Shown: positions 46,250 to 46,646 of the stretch, piece after piece
Numbering within the stretch: the first letter of the stretch is position 1
Layout of the letters: the number at the start of each line of letters is the position of its first letter
Source: Escherichia phage 212
Sequence record: PQ765507
Strand: one strand, 5' to 3'
DNA: 64,000 nt
Notes under the pieces: model-generated
Database searches by the model: none
What the model saw: the letters and a program-made list of their open reading frames with translations, nothing else
Told to the model about the DNA's origin: nothing
Position numbers and translations under genes: made by a program

Positions 46250-46646
46250 GTTATAGGTGATTCGCTACCTTAGTGCGAGCTAAAATCGAGGAGCCGTCGA
46301 ACCGTCTGATTAATGATTTGCGAATCATTATAGTTTTAAGACCCCGGCAGTTTTACGGTGTACCTCTTGAATGTTATTCTTATAGCGGCAAGTGCATGCT
46401 ACCCCGAGGTGATGGCCAATCGGGAGTACGCCTCAAGGCCTATATATCCATCAGTATATATCTTATCCTCGAGAAATCGAACCCGGAACCTTTAAGCTAA
46501 CGGTGTGCAACAGATAAGAGCTATAAGGTATGATGACGAGGTTTATGGTTATCCTGTCGTTAAATATCCGAAACCTAATGTTCCCTTCGAGGGCTTGCGC
46601 AGGCAATGTCAATAAGTCCTGCATTCTATTTTAAAGAGAATTTAAT

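Follow-up and report, generated by a model that had tools for sequence, protein, structure and literature searches.

The 64,000 nucleotides (nt) of Escherichia phage 212 DNA that were analysed here (record PQ765507; referred to as the window) belong to a T4-like (Straboviridae) genome, which over positions 45490-47300 is 98.4% identical to Shigella phage SP18 of the genus Gaprivervirus. In this region, the genes rIII and 30.9 are separated by a spacer of 397 nt. A first-pass annotation of the window had described the interval as a structure-rich region poor in open reading frames (ORFs), located between rIII and a small basic-protein gene and followed by a strong terminator. The boundaries were correctly drawn: the upstream product is 88.8% identical in amino acids (aa) to T4 rIII (tblastn), the downstream protein is the homologue of gp30.9, and the terminator behind it is predicted to close the rIII-spacer-30.9 transcription unit. 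The interval had, however, been treated as a single unit, and it is in fact a mosaic of separate modules, designated A1, A2, B, C, and D (Table 1). It constitutes a real, previously unannotated structured RNA array, of which module B defines a new RNA family without known relative.

Table 1. Features of the rIII-30.9 region in the window and at compared phage loci. L-numbers, here and in the text, are labels of compared phage loci.
Feature	Position	Strand	Remarks
gp31	45490-45837		
Late promoter match	45847-54		TATAAATA; T4-type, 5' of rIII, found by eye
Module E	45905-45994		5' of rIII; GGUGGAC 45905-11 ... UACAAC-UGAG..UCAG-AAGAACGU ... GUCCACC 45958-64, then hairpin CCUCA 45974-78/UGAGG 45982-86 holding the Shine-Dalgarno sequence
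rIII, 84 aa	45995..46249	+	PHROG 1457, E = 4.7e-42; upstream of the RNA array, co-oriented; stop at 46249
Spacer, 397 nt	46250-46646	+	rIII stop to ATG of gene 30.9
Module A1	46254..46287	+	short conserved hairpin motif GGUGAUUCGCUACCUUAGUGCGAGCUAAAA, found by eye; single-sequence z 0.64
Long-range repeat	46258-65/46320-27		TGATTCGC/GCGAATCA
Module A2	46288..46366	+	closed rod plus side hairpin; RNAalifold, 9 sequences
A2 stems	46288-91/46363-66; 46293-97/46355-59; 46300-06/46346-52	+	GAGG/CCUC; GCCGU/ACGGU; AACCGUC/GGCAGUU
A2 side hairpin	46311-18/46323-30	+	UAAUGAUU/AAUCAUUA, UGCG loop; as DNA TAATGATT/AATCATTA (aatgatt-tgcg-aatcatt)
Module B	46379..46527	+	closed domain of about 150 nt; comparative fold with seven helices and a kissing loop
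B, P1	46379-86/46520-27	+	8 bp in the window; CAAACAGC/GCUGUUUG in PKM.Lu.22.1, CAUAUUAC/GUAGUAUG in L020
B, P2	46387-89/46438-40	+	invariant; carries P3
B, P3	46399-407/46420-30	+	bulged A conserved
B, P4	46441-47/46454-60	+	AT-rich hairpin TATATAT/(G)TATATA
B, P5	46461-67/46513-19	+	encloses P6 and P7
B, P6	46469-72/46477-80	+	
B, P7	46481-85/46501-06	+	single compensatory change
B, kissing loop	46410-15/46448-53	+	6 bp; UGAUGG (P3 loop)/CCAUCA (P4 loop); P4-loop half inside the AT-rich block tatatatccatcagtatatat
Module C	46530..46580	+	H-type pseudoknot, from covariation
C helices	46533-41/46553-60; 46543-50 with 46572-78	+	S1 with bulged G 46538; S2 formed by the loop; conserved A-rich linker UAAAUAU
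Module D	46583..46622	+	CCCU-UCG-AGGG (46583-93), conserved CUUGCG, hairpin GCAGG 46599-603/CCUGC 46618-22; precedes the 30.9 ribosome-binding site
30.9 ribosome-binding site	46634-39	+	AAGAGA; ATG at 46647
Gene 30.9, 53 aa	46647..46808	+	lysine/arginine-rich protein; phrog_1427, E = 2.9e-26; named gp30.9 in SP18
Intrinsic terminator	46813..46840	+	stem-loop 46813-46832 plus T-run; 8-bp stem (5 G-C), UUCG loop
gp30.6A-like gene	46851-47201		
B locus of PKM.Lu.22.1	L006 1497-1736		240-nt gap: B 1504-1652, then A1-like hairpin, strong intrinsic terminator 1690-1716
Gene-free stretch of A73, about 600 nt	L050 253-867		OP778609.1 ~139070-139690; A2 homologue 401-491, tRNA-like ~505-590, tRNA-Met 604-678, T4 rnaD homologue ~680-780
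B site of Mosigvirus SSE1; of phage JQD51	L048 498-552; L049 496-548		different insert of ~50 nt (..CACGCGUCAGAAAAGGGUUAUCUGUUUAAGUCGUG..) between A2 and C; nothing there in T4
Module order, window			A1-A2-B-C-D
Module order, Klebsiella Jiaodavirus			X-C-A1-B-D-E
Module order, PG7 and Merlin			B-C-D-E
Module order, Cronus			B-X-C-D'-E
Module order, L058			hairpin-C-B-D
Module order, T4			A1-A2-C-D

In the comparative fold of module B, P1, P2, P4, and P5 join without linker nucleotides to give a perfect four-way junction, and P5 encloses a three-way sub-junction. When 19 distinct copies were folded together with RNAalifold, 42 pairs were obtained, 18 of them compensatory, and in an explicit structure laid over 26 copies with longer flanks 23 of the 43 pairs had changed on both sides. 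Cells of this alignment were paired in 95.6% of cases, compared to 24-44% when the partners were slid by one to three columns, and none of 500 shuffles reached the observed values. The kissing loop between the loops of P3 and P4 emerged from an all-against-all scan of covarying unpaired columns, the output of which was mostly phylogenetic noise, and was then tested separately: 98.7% of its cells are paired in the 26-sequence alignment and three of its six pairs show compensatory change. Divergent copies restore it with other bases, namely CAAUGA/UCAUUG in Cronus and L020 and CUAUGG/CCAUAG in L058 and L087. The folds of A2, B, and C as well as the kissing loop are supported by covariation, and B has a compact tertiary architecture in which two side-by-side arms are locked by the kiss. 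Around 40 unpaired bases of B are invariant, including CGGCAAGNGCAUG, GGCCUA, CCCGGA, and GCUAACGGUGNGCAACAGAUA. A GNRA tetraloop that had been considered for P6 was dropped, as the loops GAAA, GUAA, UAAA, UAAU, and UAAUA indicate an unconstrained position. With the covariance model R1, one copy of B was found in the window, at 188 bits.

G.U pairs occur in B, for example at 98-110 in 7 sequences and in P1 of L038, and because conserved wobbles of this type would correspond to A.C in the opposite strand or at the DNA level, the spacer is read as RNA on the + strand, the strand of all surrounding genes, and not as a DNA element. The description of the spacer as structure-rich holds for the comparative evidence and fails for the thermodynamics of the whole 397 nt, whose minimum free energy (MFE) gives z-scores of -0.17 on the + strand and 0.01 on the - strand relative to shuffled sequence. 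Since the energy of the spacer equals that of the shuffles, the evidence for structure is comparative, and energy alone would have missed the element. For B taken by itself, the single-sequence centroid fold matches the comparative structure, with a z-score of -1.9 that approaches significance. The three inverted repeats listed in the first-pass annotation were all found in place, and compensatory changes back two of them as RNA pairings, the side hairpin of A2 and the AT-rich hairpin that is now P4. The third, the long-range pairing of TGATTCGC with GCGAATCA, is not conserved and was rejected: it contains two mismatches in T4, and its 5' arm is absent in JS98, SSE1, and L040.

Both of the neighbouring modules with covariation support are self-contained folds of their own. 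The A2 rod contains 25 pairs, of which five are compensatory and some are invariant G.U pairs, and the same fold was obtained from the single-sequence MFE. A homologue with 82% identity is found in the Vequintavirinae phage A73, where the compensatory stems GGGG/CCCC and AAGAUUGUC/GACAAUCUU replace those of the window; the 49-aa minus-strand ORF annotated over it is probably spurious. In C, two crossing helices that both show compensatory change form an H-type pseudoknot. Nine of its 15 pairs are compensatory (five of eight in S1, four of seven in S2; e.g., UUGUGAG/CUCACAA in PG7 and GGUAGU/ACUACU in PS49), 79% of the cells are paired compared to 30-46% after sliding, and the covariation score was reached by none of 500 shuffles. 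The alignment with related phages that had been proposed as a check thus shows covarying folds kept across genera, and the suggestion of a structured non-coding RNA is strongly supported by A2, B, and C. That this is a genuine, selected, and structured RNA on the + strand can be regarded as highly probable.

No protein-coding gene explains the conservation. As had been noted, the interval lacks a plausible ORF; all ORFs that overlap it are short (25-75 aa) and have GTG or odd starts. All six frames of the 153-nt core hold at least one stop codon in all 26 distinct homologues, and the variable sites of B are distributed over the codon positions as 20, 20, and 24, that is, without codon-position bias. 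An intact protein-coding gene at the position of the spacer, the finding that was named beforehand as speaking against a non-coding element, was not found in any relative. Small ORFs or hypothetical proteins have been annotated in the spacer by some depositors, in many GenBank records; those called within it are artefacts.

Known RNA families were searched for as well. Rfam 15 (4227 covariance models) gave no match in the whole window, and hence no family in the interval, at gathering thresholds, and a permissive search (E <= 10) of 45700-47300 returned nothing that overlaps A2, B, or C. The sole permissive match inside the spacer, ToxI at 46251-84 (16.6 bits compared to a threshold of 50), was dismissed, as tandem repeats of ~36 nt and a toxN-like neighbour are missing. 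No tRNA or tmRNA gene was found in the 64-kb window by ARAGORN, and no Rfam match to the hammerhead, hairpin, twister, pistol, hatchet, HDV, or glmS ribozymes was obtained. In the searched literature on the rIII-30.9 spacer, gp30.9, and the non-coding RNAs of T4-like phages, no description of a spacer RNA was found, the sole trace being the citation of a 2003 study of rIII and 30.9 expression in a local journal. The novelty concerns the RNA family and its fold; unnamed entries in large automated motif catalogues (e.g., PMC10690425) could include B.

Module B was detected by blastn with a 155-nt query in 407 phage records, at 80-100% identity and in one place per record; these phages infect Escherichia, Shigella, Klebsiella, Enterobacter, Citrobacter, Yersinia, Salmonella, Serratia, Raoultella, and Erwinia. 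It is regarded as accessory because rIII occurs in 1116 records. B occupies the coding strand and is flanked by rIII and 30.9 in every T4-like locus with flanking DNA that was examined, and 30.9 is found 3' of the spacer in nearly every T4-like locus with downstream DNA at hand (tblastn). B is 80-96% identical to the copies in six other phages of several genera, compared to 61-78% for the coding DNA of rIII and 30.9. The middle ~153 nt of the spacer are 95% identical in Klebsiella Jiaodavirus, where the flanks do not align. The converse is seen in T4, which has the identical local gene order and a spacer of 244 nt: the flanks (~46251-46375 and ~46529-46646) are shared at ~92% and the middle ~153 nt are missing. 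Relative to T4, B is a clean insertion or deletion bounded by P1, and natural alleles with and without it coexist within one genus. Downstream of rIII in T4, Serratia CHI14, Citrobacter CkP1, Providencia, Proteus, Acinetobacter AM101, and Aeromonas avDM12, no copy was found with R1, the best score being 11.6 bits in a coding region. Looser pattern scans of IMG/VR (a 5' anchor plus a two-part 3' pattern) gave 63 loci, among which R1 confirms only three more copies, all T4-like; the other new loci are chance or coding matches, for example in a P-loop ATPase gene. A host origin was rejected, given that an exact search for the most conserved 21-mer of B in 185,579 bacterial genomes and a blastn search of 5,426 E. 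coli genomes gave no match.

The only non-T4-like phage found with B is PKM.Lu.22.1, a 76-kb member of the Grimontviridae. Its copy lies in a gap between the gene for a 257-aa protein and a sigma-factor gene, and B together with A1 is the only similarity to the 64-kb window within the 30 kb examined, where neither rIII nor 30.9 was found. As judged from these distributions, B is phage-only, dispensable, and patchy in its presence, and it has been repositioned and transferred between phage families without any protein gene.

On this basis, we favour the view that B is an autonomous RNA that acts in trans, with a confidence that is evenly balanced against doubt. This reading is preferred because B is self-contained, dispensable, repositionable, and transferable without a protein gene. 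The rIII-30.9 spacer would be transcribed with its flanking genes on the + strand, possibly from the late promoter match 5' of rIII to the terminator behind 30.9, and would fold into a chain of autonomous domains from A1 to D. In B, P1 would close the junction, the kissing loop would lock the two neighbouring arms, and the third arm with its three-way sub-junction would complete a compact body that displays the invariant single-stranded segments CGGCAAGNGCAUG and GCUAACGGUGNGCAACAGAUA. Such a body may resist nucleases and persist as a stable fragment of the rIII-30.9 transcript, so that B would be an accessory RNA, probably excised, and would use its invariant surface to bind a putative factor conserved in the Enterobacterales hosts or their phages. 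B could then serve as a decoy, sponge, or cofactor and not as a switch for the adjacent gene. The transcription of B, its accumulation as a discrete RNA, its action in trans, and the nature of its partner are inferred.

Several points weigh against this reading. Expression of B and its processing into a discrete RNA would have to be accepted from sequence, and no conserved promoter was found 5' of B; the sole sigma-70-like match that could have driven an independent B gene, in PKM.Lu.22.1, is of chance level and was rejected, as the start would fall inside P1. B is always co-oriented within an operon, which would also fit a role in cis. P2 and P7 are almost invariant, and covariation is therefore no test of them. 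Finally, the sequence diversity is modest, with about 28 distinct copies of which many are closely related, so some of the conservation could stem from recent exchanges between co-infecting phages.

A more far-reaching version is offered tentatively, as it is held with less than even confidence: with its compact four-way junction and kissing loop, B may found a new class of functional RNA in virulent enterobacterial phages, one whose target in trans is a factor of the host or of the phage, and the spacer may be an RNA cassette array whose modules (A1, A2, B, C, D, E, and X) pass between genomes in the manner of genes, even across unrelated phage families. For example, B could act as a decoy in counter-defence, hijack an RNA-binding enzyme of the host, or be a ribozyme or aptamer of a new kind. 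Few viruses have been studied as well as T4 and its relatives, and yet this spacer carries a covariation-supported RNA with tertiary structure; a 2010 review of post-transcriptional control in T4 lists no functionally characterised riboswitch or trans-acting small RNA from this phage (PMC3014915). If the proposal is true, B and the array would be the first functional non-tRNA RNA genes of T4-type phages beyond the unexplained RNAC and RNAD. Higher conservation than that of the neighbouring genes, dispensability, and mobility form a combination that is typical of accessory host-interaction functions, and the T4-type allele provides a ready-made precise deletion of B and thereby a directly testable system. 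A common stock of such RNA modules may be present in the non-coding spacers of T4-like genomes.

The most serious rival, albeit a somewhat unlikely one, is that B acts in cis, as a riboswitch-like aptamer or a protein-binding operator for 30.9 (or rIII) in the same mRNA. Multi-way junctions combined with a loop-loop kiss are known from riboswitch aptamers, for example those for lysine or cobalamin. The closing P1, the multi-helix junction, the kiss between neighbouring arms, and the invariant junction nucleotides of B resemble these, so that B has the conserved, covarying aptamer fold of a riboswitch, although binding of a ligand is hypothetical. Throughout the T4-like phages, B is also placed between rIII and 30.9 and shares their coding strand, modules D and E directly adjoin ribosome-binding sites, and pseudoknot C recalls the operator of T4 gp32 (PMC3014915). 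Riboswitches, however, couple an expression platform to P1 at a fixed position, and the neighbours of P1 in B differ by genus: B is located 120-150 nt from the start of 30.9, the intervening modules vary by genus, C lies either 5' or 3' of B, the distance to a regulated gene is not fixed, and no terminator follows B within 46250-46646. No Rfam riboswitch model matches either. A riboswitch or operator tied to 30.9 is disfavoured because there is no fixed platform, T4 (like many relatives) keeps 30.9 without B, and in PKM.Lu.22.1, which lacks 30.9 and rIII in the part examined, a terminator separates B from the next gene and gives it a position like that in a 3' untranslated region, unlike riboswitches. 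The likeness of C to the gene 32 mRNA operator (PMC3014915) is one of topology only: both are H-type pseudoknots that have an A/U-rich segment and are placed in the leader or spacer of a T4-type mRNA. C differs from the operator in sequence and gene, its A-rich stretch is a loop inside the knot and not a downstream nucleation track, and it has no fixed place with respect to the ribosome-binding site that follows.

It is also possible, yet unlikely, that the array serves the processing or stability of the mRNA, as a barrier to exonucleases or RNase E, as a block to Rho loading on a long untranslated spacer, or as a new self-cleaving ribozyme that splits the rIII and 30.9 messages. An untranslated intercistronic stretch of 400 nt would have to be protected, the modules form compact closed units, a GGAG motif of the RegB type is present (46290-93), and rIII itself is tied to RNA processing, as RIII binds ribosomal protein S1 and inhibits the S1-dependent activation of RegB (PMC9409239). 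Generic barriers, however, require neither ~40 invariant single-stranded bases nor a kissing loop; a generic stability hairpin is disfavoured because too much of the single-stranded sequence is invariant. In addition, none of the known ribozyme classes matches, T4 manages with a spacer that lacks B, and the whole spacer is no more stable than shuffled sequence.

Very unlikely is a neutral, hitch-hiking cassette without current function, whose conservation would merely reflect recent horizontal spread among co-infecting enterobacterial phages. The patchy distribution and the clean insertion/deletion boundaries would fit, as would the 155 records that show an identity of 99% or more to the window across the 155-nt query. 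However, the accumulated changes are overwhelmingly compensatory and fall in seven helix elements (six stems and the kissing loop), and B keeps an identity of 80-85% in lineages in which the flanking genes are down to 64-74%. Finally, the replication origin, packaging site, or decayed gene that had been put forward earlier, or an unrecognised small protein gene, is hardly credible: inverted repeats, an AT-rich block, and depositor-annotated small ORFs are present, but the spacer contains neither iterons nor tandem repeats, its conserved G.U pairs are strand-specific, T4 does without B, the frames are closed in all homologues, the substitutions track base pairing, and the conservation exceeds that of the flanking genes.

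Returning to an autonomous, trans-acting RNA, the nearest functional analogues of B are RNAC and RNAD of T4, the species 1 and 2 stable RNAs of the tRNA cluster, whose role is still unknown (PMC3014915; PMC9697503). These are likewise phage-encoded, structured, dispensable, co-transcribed with other genes, and about 120-140 nt long, and the A2 homologue of A73 shares its gene-free stretch with tRNA-Met and a homologue of rnaD. B differs in its locus, the absence of tRNAs from the window, and the lack of a tRNA-like 3' half, and its kiss joins junction arms 2 and 3, unlike the D and T loops of tRNA. A relationship of B to rnaC or rnaD was rejected, as neither sequence nor structure is similar; the best R1 score with filters off is 4.8 bits over T4 69000-74500, the tRNA/rnaC/rnaD region. 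The PeSL ('promoter-early stem-loop') elements, which Arbiol, Comeau, and Krisch reportedly presented in 2010 as mobile regulatory cassettes of T4-type phages, are said to combine an early promoter with a simple stem-loop and to flank novel ORFs. The spacer modules resemble them in being short, non-coding, located in plastic T4-type regions, and shuffled between genomes, and differ in their complex covarying folds without a recognisable promoter. GOLLD and ROOL are large phage-associated non-coding RNAs of 500-800 nt that are contained in Rfam, often lie near tRNAs, and occur with other hosts. B is an orphan, elaborately folded phage RNA like these, unlike them in that Rfam has no match to the window.

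The remaining modules and the order of all of them vary among phages. The stem of A1 reads CGC/GCG in the window, CAC/GUG in T4, and UGC/GCA in Klebsiella phages (by eye). In Klebsiella phages A1 immediately precedes B, in PKM.Lu.22.1 it follows B, and it is absent from JS98, PG7, and Merlin. C precedes B in Klebsiella phages and L058 but follows B in the window. D is present in many genera, with a compensatory GCCU/AGGC in Cronus (by eye) and a single-sequence z-score of 0.24. Given the different inserts at the site of B in SSE1 and JQD51, the junction between A2 and C looks like a hot spot for the exchange of RNA modules. In A2, the GGAG motif is part of GAGGAGC (46288-46294) and overlaps the 5' strand of the outer stem.

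As regards the flanking genes, gp30.9 has neither a Pfam family nor a PDB relative, and the idea that it is a recognisable RNA-binding protein was rejected. In SP18 and its relatives, rIII is annotated as a 129-aa protein from the ATG at 45860, which is probably an over-extension, as the homology to T4 rIII (82 aa) begins at 45995; the additional 45 codons overlap module E and the late promoter match TATAAATA. No promoter-like site was found within the spacer of the window. The genes 30.9 and 30.6A-like end in near-identical terminator stems, GGGGACUC-UUCG-GAGUCCC(U) (46813-46832) and GACUCC-UUCG-GGAGUC (47200-47215), and the Rfam model Atu_C8 weakly matches both (21 and 17 bits), which is taken as chance.

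Two further modules were observed outside the spacer of the window or in other phages. The outer stems of E covary (GGGAGC/GCUCCC; GGUAGUC/GACUACC in T4; GGCGA/UCGCC), and in Klebsiella, PG7, and Cronus phages E is located upstream of 30.9 and not of rIII. Module X (UGUACGC..GUACGCAUGGGUAAC), a hairpin with a direct-repeat flavour, lies 5' of C in Klebsiella phages and Cronus (L003 1383-1440, L004 1640-1680) and Klebsiella phage records present it as small hypothetical proteins (31-38 aa).

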